A DNA stretch of 64,000 nucleotides. Source: an archaeon. GTDB taxonomy: Archaea > Aenigmatarchaeota > Aenigmatarchaeia > QMZP01 > JAFGSV01. The stretch covers positions 48,257 through 112,256 of the forward strand of contig JANQNF010000024.1 of NCBI GenBank assembly GCA_028279705.1, given 5' to 3'. The notes under the pieces were generated by a model. That model searched no databases and was not told the DNA's origin. It saw nothing but the letters and a program-made list of their open reading frames with translations. Of this stretch, positions 1,015 to 51,595 are shown in pieces (the first letter of the stretch is position 1; every line of letters begins with the position of its first letter). The position numbers and the translations under genes were made by a program.

Positions 1015-1043
1015 GAAAAAGAAAAATAATCCCGAGAGGGAGA
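1015..1043. repeat. Direct repeat copy A (gaaaaag-aaaaataatcccgagagggaga); second copy at 3174-3203
   Basis: 28/29-nt identity with one indel to 3174-3203, in the same orientation. Confidence 0.85.
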
Positions 1044-1142
1044 TTCAGGCCCCATAGTGCAACTCCCACCCTTTATTTTATCTAATATGTGTATAAATAC
1101 ATATAAATCCATAGGTCCCTATGAATATATAGGTATGTTAGC

Positions 1143-1481
1143 ATGACAAGAGCAGAGCTAAAGCACCCGGAACATAAGAAAACAGGTGCGGATAACGAGT
1201 GGAAGATAGAGTTCAGCTGCAAGGTCACCCACTATCCGAGGCTGGATACTGTCATAATGGTAGCCGAGACAATAAAGAAAATCGGACCCTGCACGAAGAC
1301 AGAGCTTTCAAGGAAGCTGAAGAAACCTGTCATGTGGCCGACACTTACCGTTATACTTGACTATTTCGAGACTATGGGCTTTACGATAAAGGACAAGAGA
1401 AACCAGATAGTCTGGATATACAATCCCAAGCTTGTGAAGAAATACATAGGCAGGGAGGACCTTAAATGGGAGCCGAAATAA
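1143..1481 (+). CDS. putative antitoxin / winged-helix DNA-binding protein
   Basis: 112-aa protein with a wHTH-like core. Its end overlaps the start of the RelE/ParE-like gene by 16 nt. Confidence 0.45.
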   Translation: MTRAELKHPEHKKTGADNEWKIEFSCKVTHYPRLDTVIMVAETIKKIGPCTKTELSRKLKKPVMWPTLTVILDYFETMGFTIKDKRNQIVWIYNPKLVKKYIGREDLKWEPK

Positions 1482-1795
1482 TATTTGTCGACCGAAAGCT
1501 CAAGGATGAATATGAATCGATAGGGAACAGCTCTGAATTTGCATGGCTTCACAAGGCATTGACCAGAGCATTCAGAGATATCATGGACAATCCGTCTTGT
1601 GGAATTCCACTCAAGAAGTATCGCGTTCCTAAGAATCTCAAGTCAGTAGACATTGACAACCTCTGGAAATATGACCTTCCGGGAGGTTGGAGGCTTCTAT
1701 ACTCTCTTGCAAAAGACGAGATACGCATCATGTCGCTGATACTTGAATGGTGCGATCATCATACATACGAGAAGAAATACAGTGGAAAGAAGTAA
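1466..1795 (+). CDS. RelE/ParE-superfamily toxin
   Basis: The C-terminal motif NLWKYDLPGGWRLLYSL..DEIRIMSLILEWCDHHTY matches the RelE/ParE signature (YRxxY ... HRxxxY). Confidence 0.65.
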   Translation: MGAEIIFVDRKLKDEYESIGNSSEFAWLHKALTRAFRDIMDNPSCGIPLKKYRVPKNLKSVDIDNLWKYDLPGGWRLLYSLAKDEIRIMSLILEWCDHHTYEKKYSGKK

Positions 1796-1802
1796 ACTTT
1801 TA

Positions 1803-3218
1803 TCAGAATTCTTCAGTTTTTGAGTCTATCTGGTACTTACCCTTAGACGAGTACTGGGTCGAAACCTGGTATGTTATCCTGCTCTGATATTCACTGGTGC
1901 TATCTTCTTCAGAAAGTCCGCTGAAATCATATTTCTTTCTTGTGGCATCTTCCTTTGCCGTTTCTTGCGGTATCTTAACCTCAATGCTGAAAACTTCCTG
2001 TGCCTCAGGATAAGAGGACGGCTGACCTTCAGTTCTGAACTTCCATACAAGGCTTCCGTCTGTGTCAATGCAGTAAAGATGACAATCAAATGAGCTGAAA
2101 TAAACATTGCTATCCCAGATTACTGGTCCAAGGTACACTTTTTCTTGTGTGTCAAACTTCCACAATTCCTTTCCACTCATATTGAGGCAGTAAAATGTGT
2201 AGTTTTCACCTCCACTTAAGAAGACTCTATTCCCTTGAACTGCAGGCATGCCAAGTAGTTCATTCTTCTTGTATTTCCATATAATTTTGCCGTCCATAGT
2301 CAAGGCGTACAGTACACCATCTCTGGACGAACAGTAAAGAGTATCATCATGAATCACGGGTGACATGTAATTTCCATATATTCCCATTCTAAGTTTCCAT
2401 TTTTCCTTTCCCGTTTCTATATCAATTGCGTAAAGGTTGTTATCAAAGGAACCAAAGTAAACAACATCGTCATGGACAAGTGGGCGGTTAAGTAAATGTA
2501 TCTCGCCCCGAGTTTTGAATTTCCATATGAGGTTTCCTGTTTTAGAATCAAGGCAATAGAAAAAATGGTCGTAAGAACCGATGAAAACTTTTCCATTATG
2601 GACTGAAGGAGTTGCAACTATTTCATCGTATGTTTTGAATTTCCACACAAGATTACCCGAATTTGCGTCAACTGCATAAAACATATTATCCTTTCCGCCA
2701 ACGTATACGATGCCATCAGCGATCGCAGGTGTCGCACAAATCTTATCACTCGTCTTGAACTTCCATAAGAGTTCCCCGGTTTCTGTATTGATTGCATAAA
2801 GATTGTGGTCGTACGAACCTATGTAAAGAACTCCGTCGCTTATTGCAGGAGAGGATAGATGGATAACATCACTTGTTCTGAATCTCCATATTTCTTTCCC
2901 ACTTTTTGCATCAACCGCATATATATTGTGGTTAGCGCAACCGAAGTAAACAATTCCTTTATGTATAACTGGTATCTGCATTATGCTTCCACCGGTTTCA
3001 ACGCCCCACTGCCTGTCGAACTTCTTAGACTTCTTTACAGATAGGTCTGCCATTTCTATAGAAAAATCCTGGAATGCAGCATCACTTTCTTCCATATAGT
3101 CTATGGATGACGATAAGATTAAAAAGGTCCATATTTCGTTTATTTTGTACTCATAATCGGTATCAATCGAATCTAAAAAGTAAAAATAATCCCGAGAGGG
3201 AGAGTTCCACTCTTCCAC
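1803..3218 (-). CDS. PQQ-like beta-propeller repeat protein (start uncertain, probably internal Met near 3092)
   Basis: About eight repeats of the (Y/F)AxDxxxGxxxWKF(K/R)T motif typical of PQQ/WD-like propellers. The annotated 5' end overlaps the direct repeat and tRNA-Tyr, so the true start is likely downstream. Confidence 0.6.
   Translation of the reverse strand: MEEWNSPSRDYFYFLDSIDTDYEYKINEIWTFLILSSSIDYMEESDAAFQDFSIEMADLSVKKSKKFDRQWGVETGGSIMQIPVIHKGIVYFGCANHNIYAVDAKSGKEIWRFRTSDVIHLSSPAISDGVLYIGSYDHNLYAINTETGELLWKFKTSDKICATPAIADGIVYVGGKDNMFYAVDANSGNLVWKFKTYDEIVATPSVHNGKVFIGSYDHFFYCLDSKTGNLIWKFKTRGEIHLLNRPLVHDDVVYFGSFDNNLYAIDIETGKEKWKLRMGIYGNYMSPVIHDDTLYCSSRDGVLYALTMDGKIIWKYKKNELLGMPAVQGNRVFLSGGENYTFYCLNMSGKELWKFDTQEKVYLGPVIWDSNVYFSSFDCHLYCIDTDGSLVWKFRTEGQPSSYPEAQEVFSIEVKIPQETAKEDATRKKYDFSGLSEEDSTSEYQSRITYQVSTQYSSKGKYQIDSKTEEF
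3174..3203. repeat. Direct repeat copy B; overlaps the 3' end of tRNA-Tyr (T-stem 3' strand + acceptor 3' strand + 13-nt flank)
   Basis: See copy A. The reverse complement tctccctctcgggattattttt contains the tRNA 3' end. Confidence 0.85.
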
Positions 3219-3361
3219 GGGATTGTGGAATCGTTTTGAACTCCCGACCTATCGGTCTCTTTCGAGCGACTGCGTCCAACAAACACACTCATAAGACCGT
3301 GCATATATCACGGTGTGCCCGTCTACAGCCGATCGCTCTAGCCAGTCTGAGCTACCTCGGG
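3190..3361 (-). tRNA. tRNA-Tyr (anticodon GUA) with a 66-nt anticodon-loop intron and a second ~31-nt insertion at the T-loop/T-stem junction
   Basis: The minus strand reads CCCGAGG-TA-GCTC-AGACTGGCTA-GAGC-G-ATCGG-CTGTAG[66 nt]A-CCGAT-AGGTC-GGGAG-TTCAAAA[31 nt]CTCCC-TCTCGGG-A. All stems pair and there is a C1:G72 pair, which is a Tyr identity element in archaea. The mature length is 75 nt. Confidence 0.6.
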
Positions 3362-3385
3362 ATTGTAATAGAATATGACATGAAA

Positions 3386-3397
3386 GCCTTAAAAAAG
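3386..3397 (-). promoter_or_regulatory. TATA/BRE-like element about 25-35 nt upstream of tRNA-Tyr
   Basis: The minus strand reads CTTTTTTAAGG just upstream of the tRNA 5' end. Confidence 0.3.
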
Positions 3398-3401
3398 GTA
3401 A

Positions 3402-4745
3402 TCATGCTGCAATGTTGAGTTCCTTTGTCTGCACTTTGGATTTGCCGCCCTTGCCCGTTGAGTACCTCATGAAGGCTTTTGGTACTTTAAGGCTGCCCTT
3501 GACCACTGGATTCATCTTGTAGTGTATTATCCTGTGGTCCCCTGGCTCTATTGCGGGAAGCGACCATACGAGTTCGGTCATTTCCTTGTGATGCTTCACT
3601 GCAGGCTTCACTGTCTCGAAATCATCTTTCAGGTTGAAAAGCGGTGAGACCTCGTCCTTTACGATGACATCTGTTATCTTCTTTCCGGCGTTCTTTATCT
3701 CAAGCACGGTCATGTAGCTTCCGTCTTCTCCCATTTCGACCTTTTTCCTGAGAGCAGGAGTATTGATCTTGGTCCTCCCGAAGAACACGAAGACTCCGAG
3801 AAGCACGGCGATTAAAAGGCCTTCAGCTATGAGCGGCCAGTACTGTACCCGGTAGACGATTTGCATTGCTTCTTCAGGGTTGAGTTTTGACACAGTCCAT
3901 TCGCATACACTCTCATCGCAACTTTCTGGTTCCTGTGAAAACGTGACGAAACCGGTCGGCACGTTCGCACTTACCGTGTAGTCCTCCTCTATCACGTTGC
4001 CCTCGTTTGACACGCTTATCACGAATTCCTGGAACAACGGGTTTGTGCTCTCTTCTTCTGTCTTTACCATCCTGTGGACAGGCTCTATCATGAACGATTT
4101 TTCCAAAGATATGTCGGTGCCCTTCACTTCAGCCTTGGCGGTGTATGTGTCTGCGAAAGGTGCAGCACTCAGTGGTATTTCATGTGTCAGGTTGGTCCTG
4201 CCTTCGATGAATAATGTCTTTGTGTAAGTGTACATGGTCTTTTTGGAACTACTCACAAGCGAGAATTCCGCGGTCACCTCTTCCTCAGTGCCTGAATCCA
4301 GCTCAAGCAGCATGTCCACGCTGTCTGCGCTCTTTTTTATTTCACCGTCAAGTTCGCTTACTTCTCCCTCGCCAAGAACAACCAGTTCCACCTTCTCGCT
4401 TAATACCAGCTCGGGTTTGTCATGGGACTGGACCTTTATCTCGTACTCATAAGTTCCCGGTACATCGTTTGGGTAAAACTCGATTTTTACCGTGACCGGG
4501 TCTTCTACCGGGAGGTCTATGTAGGAAGTTCCCATGTTGATCCAGTGACTCGGGGATCCTGTCACAAACAGGTACAGTCCGCCCACTGACTCAGGACTGT
4601 ATGCTGTCACAGTGAATTTTGTCATCTCTCCTGGGTTGACCCTGAGAACTTTTGGGACGACTTCCAGGCTCATGTCCGTCTGGGCAGAAACTAAACCGAT
4701 GCTTACGATGAATGCAATGAGCGTGAATGCCAGTATCTTTTCCAT
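3402..4745 (-). CDS. secreted, membrane-anchored cell-surface protein (hypothetical)
   Basis: N-terminal signal peptide MEKILAFTLIAFIVSIGLVSAQT and a C-proximal TM helix LIAEGLLIAVLLGVFVFF followed by a basic cytoplasmic tail. Confidence 0.55.
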   Translation of the reverse strand: MEKILAFTLIAFIVSIGLVSAQTDMSLEVVPKVLRVNPGEMTKFTVTAYSPESVGGLYLFVTGSPSHWINMGTSYIDLPVEDPVTVKIEFYPNDVPGTYEYEIKVQSHDKPELVLSEKVELVVLGEGEVSELDGEIKKSADSVDMLLELDSGTEEEVTAEFSLVSSSKKTMYTYTKTLFIEGRTNLTHEIPLSAAPFADTYTAKAEVKGTDISLEKSFMIEPVHRMVKTEEESTNPLFQEFVISVSNEGNVIEEDYTVSANVPTGFVTFSQEPESCDESVCEWTVSKLNPEEAMQIVYRVQYWPLIAEGLLIAVLLGVFVFFGRTKINTPALRKKVEMGEDGSYMTVLEIKNAGKKITDVIVKDEVSPLFNLKDDFETVKPAVKHHKEMTELVWSLPAIEPGDHRIIHYKMNPVVKGSLKVPKAFMRYSTGKGGKSKVQTKELNIAA

Positions 4746-16181: not shown

Positions 16182-16649
16182 TTATGAAACTGTTCCGGTT
16201 ATTGTACCCATTTCCTTGAATCCGGTCAGTCCCGTGTCGAGATTGTCGTAGGTCAGCTCGACATCTGCCGAGTAAGTTGATCCGGCTGTCTGGTCAGTGC
16301 AGTACGCATTGATGGTTATACCCGTACCTACTCCCACAGAACCCGTTCCTGACGTGGCAGTGCAGCTTGTCGCACCAACGCTTACCGCGATTGCTGTTAT
16401 GTTTATCCTTGACGGAAGGTTGTTGGCCAAAACGAGCTGGAACTGATCTGTTGCATTGGTTGCACCAAGCTTCCATGCACCAGGTTCAGGCGCACCGATG
16501 TTTGTGAACCCAGTTGCCCTGGAACCAGTCCAGGTCGCCGGATTGAACACGCCGAGCGAATAAAGCGCCGCTGCCACGATGATCACGATCAGGATGGCCC
16601 AACCGTAAGTCATCAAGTATTCCATTGCTGCTTGTGCTTTCATTTTCAT
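16182..16649 (-). CDS. archaeal type IV pilin-like protein (class III signal peptide, DUF361-like), paralog 1
   Basis: N-terminus MKMKAQAAMEYLMTYGWAILIVIIV (K-A/Q-AAMEYL prepilin motif followed by a hydrophobic helix). Ser/Thr/Gly-rich secreted domain. Confidence 0.7.
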   Translation of the reverse strand: MKMKAQAAMEYLMTYGWAILIVIIVAAALYSLGVFNPATWTGSRATGFTNIGAPEPGAWKLGATNATDQFQLVLANNLPSRINITAIAVSVGATSCTATSGTGSVGVGTGITINAYCTDQTAGSTYSADVELTYDNLDTGLTGFKEMGTITGTVS

Positions 16650-16783: not shown

Positions 16784-17251
16784 CTAACTTACGGTTCCGG
16801 TTATTGTACCCATTTCCTTGAATCCGGCAAGACCGGTGTCAAGGTTCTCGTATGTCAGCTCGACATCTGCCGAGTAAGTTGATCCGGCTGTCTGGTCAGT
16901 GCAGTACGCATTGACTGTTATGCTCGAACCAACACCTGCAAGTCCTGTTCCTGCTGTAGCAGTGCAACTTGTTGCACCGACGCTGACTGTAACGGCTGTT
17001 ATGTTTATCCTTGACGGAAGGTTGTTAGCCAATTTCAGCTGGAACTGATCTGTTGCATTGGTTGCTGACAGTTTCCAAGCGCCTGGTGCGGGTGCACCGA
17101 TGTTTGTGAACCCAGTTGCCCTGGAACCAGTCCAAGTTGCCGGGTTAAAGACACCAAGTGCATACAATGCCGCTGCCACGATGATCACGATCAGGATGGC
17201 CCAACCGTAAGTCATCAAGTATTCCATTGCTGCTTGTGCTTTCCTCTTCAT
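16784..17251 (-). CDS. archaeal type IV pilin-like protein, paralog 2
   Basis: About 90% identical to 16182-16649 at both nucleotide and protein level, a tandem duplicate. Confidence 0.7.
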   Translation of the reverse strand: MKRKAQAAMEYLMTYGWAILIVIIVAAALYALGVFNPATWTGSRATGFTNIGAPAPGAWKLSATNATDQFQLKLANNLPSRINITAVTVSVGATSCTATAGTGLAGVGSSITVNAYCTDQTAGSTYSADVELTYENLDTGLAGFKEMGTITGTVS

Positions 17252-44587: not shown

Positions 44588-44859
44588 CTGTGATCGGGGA
44601 CGACATGACCGTACTCGGGATGAGACTTGCAGGCGTTGAAAGCAGCATTGCCACTGCTGAAAATATCCAGAGCGTGTATGACAAGGTAGCGGAAAGTGCG
44701 GACATGATAGCAGTGACTCATGGTCTTTTCGAATCGCTGAAAAAAAAGGACGAGAAAAAGATAACCGTAAGCATCCCTGACATGACGGGAGGTGGCGGTG
44801 ACATGATAAAGGAAATGGTAAAAAGGGTTGTTGGATTCGAGGTGAAGTCAAATGGGTAA
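44575..44859 (+). CDS. atpF: A-type ATP synthase subunit F
   Basis: MAKLAVIGD...GMRLAGV flavodoxin-like F-subunit signature. Confidence 0.7.
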
Positions 44860-47800
44860 GATAATACGTGTTACTGGTTCGGCAATTGAAGCCGAAGGCA
44901 TGCGCGGAAGCAGCATGTATGAGATGGTAAAGGTAGGAAATGAAGGCCTTCTTGGCGAGATAATAAGGCTTGAAGGTGACACGGCTTTCATACAGGTATA
45001 CGAAGAGACTACGGGTCTTACTCCGGGAGGTCCTGTAGAATGCACGGGAAAGCCGCTTTCAGTGGAACTCGGTCCAGGTGTTCTTAAGTCCATTTACGAT
45101 GGCATACAAAGACCGCTTGAGTCGATAAAGTCGGAGTGCGGCGAATACATACTGAGGGGAATATTCGTCCCATCCCTTGACAGGAAGGCGAAATGGAAGT
45201 TCACGCCTGTCGTCAAGAAGGGCGATTCCGTCAGGGCAGGAAGCGTCGTTGCCACGGTTCCCGAAACAGATGTCGTAACCCACAAGGTGATGGTACCATA
45301 CGGTGTCGAGGGAACGGTAGAAAGCGTTGAAAAAGGGGAGTTTACCGTCGATGACGTCGTCTACAAGATAAAGACAAAGGACGGTGTGAAGAAGTTTACG
45401 ATGGTCCAGACCTGGCCCATCAGAAAGCCAAGGCCTGTCACAGAAAAGCTTGCACCAGAAATCCCGCTTCTTACAGGGCAGCGGGTGTTTGATATGTTCT
45501 TCCCGCTTGCAAAAGGCGGCGCTGCCGCGATCCCTGGAGGCTTTGGGACAGGAAAATGTGTCAGTGGTGACACTCCTGTTGTCATGGGTGATGGAAGTAT
45601 AAAGAAGATGTGCGACGTGTTTGAAGAGAACAAGAGAAAGGGACTTTCGACGCGCGAAGGCGTTGAGGAGTATACACATCTGTCAAAACCCCTGAATGTC
45701 TTTTCGTGCAACAGCGGCCACGTGAAGAAGAAAAAGGCAACACTTGTCTACAAGGGAAAGACCAATTCTATGTGCAGAGTTAAGACGAGAATGGGACGGG
45801 TTGCCGAGGTGACACCGGTCCATAAACTATTCAAGATCAATCCGGATCTTTCCATAACAGGTACCGAAGCTGGAAAGCTTAAGAAGGGGGACTTCCTGAT
45901 ATCACCGAGGAGGATGAAGATCAAAGCAGAAATCCAGAAGATCAATGTCTTTGATCACTTTGATCATGAGAGGGTGTGTGATAAGGAAATAATTGACGAA
46001 ATCCCGGGTATTATCGACGGTTTTAGCTGTACAAGAAAGGAGCTTTCAGGAAGACTCGGGACCTCCTGCAGCACCATCAGTGGATACTACTCCAAGAGCA
46101 ACAGGCCGACTGTCGATTTCGTGAGGAAGCTTTACTCTCTTTCAAAGAAGAAAGTCAAAGTTTCAACAATAAAAAGCCAGAGATATGGAAAGAAGATTTC
46201 AGTACCTGACACGTTTTCTACGGAACTTGCAGAATTCATGGGACTTGTGATTGGCGATGGTTCCCTCAAGCCTGGGGGAATAGAGTTCTACAACAATGAC
46301 GAAAAGATGCTTGACAGGTTCGATGAGCTTGGTATGAAGCTTTTTGGCCTTACTTCCATAAGAAAGGTTGCAAACACAGTAAAGTGTTCGCACATGGGAA
46401 GTGTCGCCCTTGTCAGGTTCATGAACAGTCTTGGTATACCAAGGGTCAAGAAGTCCAGGACGTGCACTGTTCCAAAGATCCTAATGAAATCCAGTGACAG
46501 GCATGTTGCGGCCTTTTGTGGAGCCTACTTTTCATGCGATGGTCACGTCTCAAAGAGAGGATACGATCTTGAGATTGCAACCGCCAGCAGCGAATTCCAG
46601 ATAGGGTTCTCGTATCTTCTTCTGAGGCTAGGAATACTCCACAAGCTTTCCGAAAGGACGGGAGTAAATGGAAGGCCCCAGTACAGGATATTCGTTACAG
46701 GAAAGGACCAGATCGGCATTTTCTATGAAAAAAGTAATAATAATAGCGTCAAGTTCGAAAGAATCAGGGATTATCTTGAAAATGGCAGGTGTGCTTACAA
46801 TTCAACTGACGTGGTCCCTATAGGCAGCGATCTGGTTGAGGAGGTGTACGATTCTCTTGGCAGGCCCCATAACCGACTGAACTCCTACGGTGTCCACATA
46901 GACAACTATCTCGGCAACAAGGAAATGATGGGAAGGGGCGTGTTTTGCAAGTTTGCAAAAGCCAGCGGAAGAGAATCACTGATGAAGTTTGCAGACTGTA
47001 TGAGCGACATATACTGCGACAAGATCGTGGATGTGCAGACTATTGATAGTCCAAGGGACGTCTTTGATATAACTGTCCCGGATTTCCACAATTTCGTTGG
47101 AGGCTTCGGACCGATGTTTTTGCACAACACAGTATCACAGCAGAGCCTTGCGAAGTGGTCTGATGCAAACATCATAATCTATGTCGGATGCGGTGAGCGC
47201 GGAAACGAGATGACAGAGGTTCTTGACGAGTTCCCGCACCTGAAGGATCCTAAATCCGGACTTCCTCTCATGGAGAGGACGTGCATGATCGCGAATACGT
47301 CAAACATGCCTGTCGCTGCAAGGGAGGCGTCCATTTACACGGGAATAACGCTTGCAGAATACTACAGGGACATGGGATACGACGTTGCAATGATGGCGGA
47401 TTCGACATCCAGATGGGCAGAAGCCCTGAGGGAGATGTCAAGCAAGCTCGAAGAAATACCTGGTGAAGAAGGGTATCCTGCATACCTTGCGTCAAGGCTT
47501 GCAGACTTCTATGAGAGGGCAGGACGGGTAAAGGCGCTAAGCAGCGAGACCGGGAGCATCAGCATCATCGGTGCAGTGTCCCCTCCGGGCGGCGACTTCT
47601 CAGAGCCTGTCACGCAAAACACCCTGAAGATCACAAGGGTCTTCTGGGCGCTTGACACGACGCTTGCGGACAGGAGGCACTTCCCGTCCGTAAACTGGCT
47701 CACTTCGTATTCGCTTTACAGCGGAAAGCTTGACGCGTGGTTTTCCAAAAACGTTTCTCCTGAATGGGCAGCGCTTCGAAACAAGGCAATGGTAATACTC

Positions 47801-48151
47801 CAGAAGGAATCTGAGCTGAGGGAAATAGTCCAGCTTGTCGGCCCGGACGCACTTCCGCTTTCAGAAAGAGTGGTACTTGAGGTTGCAAGAATGGTCAGGG
47901 AGGACTTTTTGCAGCAGAACGCCTTCCACGAAGTGGATTCGTACTGCCCGCCAGAAAAGCAGTTCCGTATGCTTGAAATGATAATGGCATTCCACTCCTT
48001 TGCAGACGGCATGATAGCTTCCGGAAAGTCCATAGAAGATGTCCTGAATACGGACATCGCATCCGAGATGGGCAGGATGAAGTACATGAATGAGAATGAA
48101 TTCTCAAAGATGCACGAGTCGTCCATGAAGAAAATGAAGGCAGGTGTTTGA
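44852..48151 (+). CDS. atpA: A-type ATP synthase catalytic subunit A, interrupted by a 524-aa intein in the P-loop
   Basis: The extein GGFGTGK|TVSQQ reconstitutes the Walker A motif. The C-terminal half matches A-subunit blocks ([16 protein letters not shown]). Confidence 0.85.
45557..47128 (+). mobile_element. Full-size intein with LAGLIDADG homing-endonuclease domain, in the atpA P-loop
   Basis: Starts at Cys1 (CVSGDTPVV). Two LAGLIDADG motifs ([27 protein letters not shown]). Ends ...FLHN followed by Thr+1. In frame with the exteins. Confidence 0.8.
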
Positions 48152-51382: not shown

Positions 51383-51432
51383 GAAACTCCCAGAAATTTT
51401 ATTAATGTTACCCTGTCATTATATTCATCGAT

Positions 51433-51529
51433 GGGCCTGTAGCTCAGTCTGGTTAGAGCACCCGGCTCTTAGGGGTCACTTGACCACGGAGAAACCGGGG
51501 CGTCGCGGGTTCGAATCCCTCCAGGCCCA
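51433..51529 (+). tRNA. tRNA-Lys (CUU) with 22-nt intron at the canonical 37/38 position
   Basis: GGGCCTG-TA-GCTC-AGTCTGGTTA-GAGC-A-CCCGG-CTCTTA[22 nt]A-CCGGG-GCGTC-GCGGG-TTCGAAT-CCCTC-CAGGCCC-A. Confidence 0.7.
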
Positions 51530-51595
51530 TTTCATTTTCTAAAGTTTTCCCACAGAAGACCGAAGGGTTTTTATTACTTTCTTTCAAGAATCAAT

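Follow-up and report, generated by a model that had tools for sequence, protein, structure and literature searches.

A tRNA-Tyr(GUA) gene of an Aenigmatarchaeota archaeon with a conserved canonical intron and a probable second intron in the T loop

Organization and detection of the tRNA-Tyr gene

The whole stretch of DNA that was analysed, referred to below as the window, is 64,000 nucleotides long and carries on its minus strand, at 3190..3361, a complete tRNA-Tyr(GUA) gene. This gene was recognized by ARAGORN after in-silico splicing and has orthologues in 21 Aenigmatarchaeota loci. Its precursor is 172 nt and its mature form 75 nt long, and the CCA end is not encoded. In the direction of the gene (all features on the minus strand), exon 1 with the tRNA positions 1-37 (3323..3361; 39 nt, because the D loop is long) is followed by an intron of 66 nt at the canonical site 37/38 (3257..3322), by exon 2 with the positions 38-59 (3235..3256; ACCGATAGGTCGGGAGTTCAAA), by an intron of 31 nt in the T loop at 59/60 (3204..3234; ACGATTCCACAATCCCGTGGAAGAGTGGAAC) and by exon 3 with the positions 60-73 (3190..3203; TCTCCCTCTCGGGA). 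By reading of the flanking sequence, the TATA-like box TTTTTTAA at 3389..3396 (-), which lies at -35..-28 from C1, is a putative archaeal promoter, and the T-rich trailer TTATTTTTACTTTTT at 3175..3189 (-) a putative terminator.

The native sequence of 3190-3361 was matched neither by ARAGORN nor by Rfam (gathering threshold as well as E<=10), and the intron and relaxed-score options of ARAGORN gave nothing or spurious calls on it. In the whole window ARAGORN reported only two tRNA-Pro and one other tRNA, and the same three were reported by Rfam. When the 31-nt segment was deleted in the register chosen in the initial annotation of this DNA, the intron mode of ARAGORN called a tRNA-Tyr(gta) of 75 nt with a 66-nt intron at the canonical site, a C1-G72 pair, A73 and a variable loop of 5 nt. 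Deletion of both segments gave the identical 75-nt tRNA-Tyr. The combination of C1-G72 and A73 is consistent with archaeal Tyr identity. ARAGORN thus agrees with the initial annotation on a tRNA-Tyr(GUA) with a 66-nt intron at 37/38, once the T-loop insert has been removed. The cloverleaf had been described there as a perfect one of 75 nt; its length and its C1-G72 pair were confirmed, whereas strictly speaking it is not perfect because the acceptor stem contains one wobble, G7.U66. We conclude that 3190-3361 is probably the tRNA-Tyr gene of the organism.

Predicted splice junction of the T-loop intron

Bulge-helix-bulge (BHB) motifs were scored according to the published geometry of two 3-nt bulges with a helix of 4 bp between them and a cut two nucleotides into each bulge; at the canonical site the anticodon bases 34-35 lie within the central helix (PMC4090602). 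The canonical intron of the tRNA-Lys(CUU) gene of the window served as positive control for the BHB scanner and gave 4/4 central pairs. From the sequence alone the boundaries of the 31-nt segment of the tRNA-Tyr gene are ambiguous, as several registers of removal are possible. The BHB geometry sets the intron one base upstream of the position chosen in the initial annotation, i.e. at 59/60. At this junction a strict hBHBh' motif with 4/4 central pairs is formed, in which the central helix consists of UUCA(54-57)/UGGA and the bulges of AA|A and AC|U. The T stem GGGAG/CUCCC (5 bp) serves as outer helix, and the inner helix is composed of a C-G pair, two G/A mismatches and the 6-bp hairpin stem UUCCAC/GUGGAA. 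Excision at 59/60 leaves the T loop UUCAAAU, which is the T loop of the intron-less orthologues. When the insert was shuffled, 54 of 20000 sequences (0.27%) gave a strict BHB that restored the 7-nt T loop. A second, non-canonical intron in the T loop had been proposed in the initial annotation, with the formation of a BHB at the second junction as its test; the strict motif at 59/60 and the restoration of the cloverleaf on excision bear this proposal out.

The exact position that had been assigned to this intron did not hold. Removal of the segment at 60/61 (or 61/62) would create the T loop UUCAAAA, and removal at 60/61 does give a 75-nt cloverleaf that is acceptable to ARAGORN. However, only 1/4 of the central pairs can be formed at 60/61 and 0/4 at 61/62, neither of which constitutes a BHB, and all intron-less orthologues have UUCAAAU rather than UUCAAAA. 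A second intron at either of these junctions is therefore regarded as extremely improbable.

Two other possibilities were considered and rejected. The alternative junction 57/58 was weaker, with 3/4 pairs and without an inner helix. The T-loop intron was also inspected as a possible K-turn; it is not one, since a C-G pair separates the two G/A mismatches from the bulge.

T-loop introns in the orthologous genes

When a degenerate 5'-exon pattern was run against one genome of each species, 13 loci were obtained, which belong to six MAGs of Candidatus Aenigmatarchaeota, six entries named 'uncultured archaeon' and one Hadarchaeales outgroup. Nine further loci were obtained from a metagenome scan with the exon-2 region. 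The conserved gene order is DUF11 protein, tRNA-Tyr, HAD hydrolase, two tRNA-Pro, A24 peptidase, MC1, GGGP synthase and ArsA, and the syntenic loci are about 70% identical to the window at the DNA level. The shared synteny of the DUF11 protein, tRNA-Tyr and the HAD hydrolase indicates that the loci are orthologous. This implies that the window is derived from the Aenigmatarchaeota (DPANN) and not from a euryarchaeon. The euryarchaeal-like context that had been assumed at the outset is accordingly abandoned, as the syntenic loci with about 70% identity are MAGs of Candidatus Aenigmatarchaeota (DPANN).

A T-loop intron of 31-138 nt is present at 58/59 or 59/60 in 13 of the 22 syntenic Aenigmatarchaeota loci; no T-loop intron is present in 9/22, where the T arm reads uninterruptedly GGGAGTTCAAATCTCCC, and the T arm of the window gene is identical to it after removal of the intron. 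The intron is located at 59/60 in the window and in the loci L006, L010 and L013 (31, 33, 33 and 75 nt, respectively), and at 58/59 in L003 (identical to L018), L011, L012, L014, L017, L019, L021 and L023 (54-138 nt). All four central pairs are formed in 12 of the 13 genes with an intron and three of the four in L013, and BHB excision yields exactly TTCAAAT in 13/13. Variation in the central helix is compatible with pairing: UGGA or UGAA is found opposite UUCA, and GGGC, GGAC or GAAC opposite GUUC (G.U to A-U). The intron sequences are unrelated between the loci, and so are their inner helices. In the complete chromosome CP070804.1 (L010) the sole match to the 5'-exon pattern also bears a T-loop intron, of 33 nt, which speaks for genes of this kind being the working copy. 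The comparative pattern is that expected of real BHB introns and not of damage.

Folding of the T arm of the window gene by RNAfold gave a register-shifted helix of -20.8 kcal/mol versus -15.8 kcal/mol for the BHB fold. In isolation, the BHB is therefore not the most stable fold of the T arm. A lowest-energy fold that differs from the BHB could mean that the gene is transcribed and that its insert is not excised by EndA, being kept as an expansion or processed by another route, which would result in a non-standard tRNA product. However, the unrelated inserts of 31-138 nt all keep the BHB geometry at the sole site that restores UUCAAAU, and such a conserved placement is hard to account for without BHB-dependent excision. 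We therefore consider the retention of the insert very unlikely and favour its removal as an intron.

Across these loci, the T-loop introns of this single orthologous gene, at 58/59 as well as at 59/60, are best described as a fast-turnover set.

The motifs GCCCGCTTTT...AAAATGGAA of the L013 intron, which is at 59/60, recur in the introns that L017 and L021 have at 58/59. This is apparently one intron family at sites that are one base apart, and the pattern is suggestive of an intron that slides along the run A57-A59.

Conservation of the canonical intron

At 37/38 the BHB has its bulges in place, a 5-bp inner helix and, as outer helix, the 5-bp anticodon stem. Its central helix CUGU/AAAG has 3/4 pairs because G34 faces a purine. 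G34 is opposite A (G in some relatives) at every locus, so that the purine-purine mismatch is conserved. The 66-nt intron is 86-100% identical among the orthologues L002-L023, which equals the conservation of the exons; the neighbouring proteins are about 50-70% identical. The consensus fold of the intron consists of the BHB inner helix and two hairpins, in which RNAalifold detected one-sided substitutions only and zero double compensations. The conservation of the 66-nt intron suggests a role for the intron RNA or for the precursor, and this near-invariant segment may itself act as a functional RNA.

The intron of Haloferax tRNA-Trp is an example of an intron-borne box C/D guide RNA. The criteria for such RNAs are a C box RUGAUGA, a D box CUGA and guide complementarity. 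By eye, the CUGA D box is absent from both introns of the window gene, and Rfam returned no hit of any kind in the region 3000-3600 at E<=10; over the gene, neither a tRNA nor a snoRNA was matched at the gathering threshold or at E<=10. A segment GUGAU in the canonical intron falls inside hairpin 1, partly in the stem. A box C/D guide RNA was therefore rejected for either intron on account of the missing D box and the missing Rfam match.

The direct repeat and the gene cassettes at the tRNA 3' end

An att-like direct repeat is located at 3176-3203 and 1016-1043, with an exact core of 22 nt, TCTCCCTCTCGGGATTATTTTT. The proximal copy of the core (3182..3203, -) is made up of exon 3 and 8 nt of the trailer, and the distal copy (1022..1043, -) is an att-like remnant. 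The downstream flank of the distal repeat (TTTTTCAC...) resembles the native trailer of L005 and L016. Directly 5' of the distal repeat lies the conserved arm motif GGTGGGAGTTGCACTATGGGGCCTGAA (1044..1070, -), which is found in front of the distal copies of L007, L020 and L022 as well. The arm preceding each distal copy is a conserved stretch of about 30 nt, GGYGGGATYTGCACTWAGRCAYCGGTGT (GGYGGGATYTGCAC...), and in L007, L020 and L022 a second copy of the arm is present about 100 nt past the core. The distal repeat was also considered as a trans-spliced or alternative 3' half of the tRNA; this was rejected, as no BHB-compatible pairing could be found upstream of it by hand.

The two copies of the repeat are 2.16 kb apart and enclose a PQQ-type beta-propeller gene and two small ORFs, for which no Pfam match was obtained. 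The PQQ-like gene (1803..3095, -; 430 aa; assigned by Pfam) has homologues in L003/L018 and in L015/L022, which align from residue 1 of the 430-aa form (ATG at 3095). The public gene call is a protein of 471 aa with a GTG start at 1803-3218 (-), corresponding to 11528-12943 of L001, and it enters exon 3 and the T-loop intron. This call is over-extended because the tRNA is unannotated.

A repeat that begins at U60 is found as well in L007, L020 and L022, relatives without a T-loop intron. A copy of the 3' exon and trailer of the tRNA delimits each cassette, and at most two cassettes stand in tandem. The cassette of the window (1016-3203) contains the PQQ propeller, and that of L007 (4618-5850) a pair of 1.2 kb encoding, by reading of the translation, a nucleotidyltransferase-like protein and an apparent HEPN-domain protein. 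Two cassettes each are present in L020 (538-2900; one with a methyltransferase, the other with a nucleotidyltransferase) and in L022 (845-6521; one with a PQQ gene). An integrase was looked for in the cassettes and in the scanned ORFs of the window, without success. The cassettes resemble a tandem accretion of integrase-less elements at the att site of a tRNA gene.

It had been noticed at the outset that the second intron is immediately next to the att-like repeat, and indeed U60, the first base of the repeat core, directly follows the last base of the insert. For this reason the 31-nt insert could be thought of as a scar of integration, left when the 2.16-kb segment between the repeat copies came in, and the locus as a pseudo-tRNA with a broken T arm. 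However, a strict BHB is formed by the insert, and excision there would restore the consensus T loop. Moreover, T-loop introns occur in loci that are free of a duplicated tRNA end (L006, L012, L014, L017, L021 and L023), and U60 repeats in the intron-less L007, L020 and L022. The PQQ gene adjoins tRNA-Tyr whatever the state of the intron, i.e. in lineages with the 59/60 intron, with the 58/59 intron and without intron. Taken together, this indicates that the U60 boundary is a property of the insertion system that acts at tRNA-Tyr, and consequently that the T-loop intron is not its scar. By these comparisons the scar explanation, which the initial annotation had left as an alternative, is already largely refuted, and we regard it as highly improbable. 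The nearby direct repeat is best read as the reflection of a separate insertion of gene cassettes at the 3' end of the tRNA gene.

Proposed expression and splicing

Transcription would probably start downstream of the TTTTTTAA box, which is situated about 30 nt upstream of the gene, and would end in the T-run trailer. The precursor is predicted to contain two BHB motifs, one at 37/38 with the structured intron of 66 nt and one at 59/60 with the hairpin intron of 31 nt. EndA would cut both of them two nucleotides into each 3-nt bulge, after which an RtcB-type ligase would join the three exons. The predicted spliced junctions are CGGCUGUAG|ACCGAUAGG and GGGAGUUCAAA|UCUCCCUCUCGGGA, and the expected product is a 75-nt tRNA with the T loop UUCAAAU, to which the CCA would be added after splicing because it is not encoded. 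Since every archaeal type of EndA can in principle cleave a strict hBHBh', the model does not call for a special enzyme. The ORFs of the window that were scanned, as far as about 58 kb, include no gene for EndA or RtcB. What was observed comprises the gene itself, the geometry of the two BHBs, the cloverleaf restored on excision and the pattern among the relatives; on this basis the locus is, with high confidence, read as a spliced and functional two-intron tRNA-Tyr gene of an Aenigmatarchaeota (DPANN) archaeon.

Relation to known disrupted tRNA genes

Non-canonical BHB introns, including those at 59/60, and tRNA genes with multiple introns have been described in Crenarchaeota (Thermoproteales), Nanoarchaeota and ARMAN (PMC4090602; underlying studies by Marck & Grosjean, 2003 and Sugahara, 2007/2008, as reviewed there). 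The window gene resembles them in having, besides the canonical intron at 37/38, a further BHB intron at one of the non-canonical sites on the published list, and in the two 3-nt bulges around a 4-bp helix that mark the splice sites. It differs in its host, an aenigmatarchaeote of the DPANN, and in its T-loop BHB, which is a strict hBHBh' and not a relaxed one. No description of tRNA introns in Aenigmatarchaeota was found in the searchable literature. Within the same superphylum, a marked increase of non-canonical and multiple introns in DPANN was reported by Kaneta et al. (2018; PMC5829648), who also suspected that further disrupted tRNA genes had gone undetected. The DPANN lineages in that study have an alpha4-type EndA with an L3 loop, and Aenigmarchaeota genomes were not in the set (PMC5829648). 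The two-intron tRNA-Tyr is thus a fresh example of an already known class of genes that escape the standard tRNA finders. As ARAGORN and Rfam are blind to it, the annotations of MAGs of this lineage will appear to lack tRNA-Tyr.

Slightly beyond the routine are the rapid turnover of the T-loop intron at two adjacent sites, as it appears from the orthologues, and the almost invariant canonical intron of 66 nt. Turnover or transposition of tRNA introns in Thermoproteales was described by Fujishima (2010, as cited in PMC4090602). There, as here, close genomes differ in the presence, length and sequence of introns, and such differences between closely related genomes suggest recent gain and loss. 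The present case is distinguished from the Thermoproteales in that it concerns one orthologous gene with the adjacent sites 58/59 and 59/60 and with a near-invariant canonical intron alongside. The series of loci with no, short or long T-loop introns makes up a compact data set on the gain, sliding and loss of BHB introns, and could be used to test a link between intron turnover and the integration of mobile elements at tRNA genes.

According to the Randau-Soll idea, introns disrupt the attB of elements that integrate at tRNA genes (PMC4090602, section 14). The T-loop intron sites 58/59 and 59/60 are positioned directly 5' of the duplicated block, which runs from U60 to the trailer. The locus corresponds to known att sites in tRNA genes in that a direct repeat of the 3' part of the tRNA flanks the inserted DNA and in that the intron is immediately 5' of the repeated block; it is unlike them in the absence of an integrase from the cassettes and the window ORFs scanned. 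Splitting of the attB half-site by the T-loop introns, and hence protection against integration, could be the reason for their gain and retention, a reading that we put forward as an unlikely one. The window has the intron and a cassette together and so does not demonstrate protection. Evidence of cassettes was seen in 2/11 intron-bearing loci versus 4-5 of 7-8 intron-less loci (p ~0.1 by a rough hand estimate), an association between the intron and the absence of cassettes that is suggestive only, as the loci are few and phylogenetically non-independent. If protection were the true reading, the clade, in which introns and cassette arrays alike are present in some lineages and missing from others at a single orthologous site, would offer a natural test set. 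A looser parallel to the cassettes is provided by archaeal integrons (PMC9668308).

Other features of the window

By hand, the tRNA-Lys(CUU) gene was delineated at 51432-51530 (+), with a canonical intron of 22 nt in a strict BHB. It was miscalled by ARAGORN as '???(ttag)' or Ser(aga), and its T stem has one C.U mismatch. The catalytic subunit A of an A-type ATPase is encoded at 44852-48151 (+) and contains an intein with a LAGLIDADG homing-endonuclease domain (Pfam Intein_splicing and LAGLIDADG_3). A direct repeat of 300 nt with 84% identity is found at 16189-16488 and 16791-17090. It spans two adjacent ORFs of 155 aa, 16182-16649 and 16784-17251 (-), of which the former has no Pfam match; from its arrangement, this pair looks like a tandem gene duplication.
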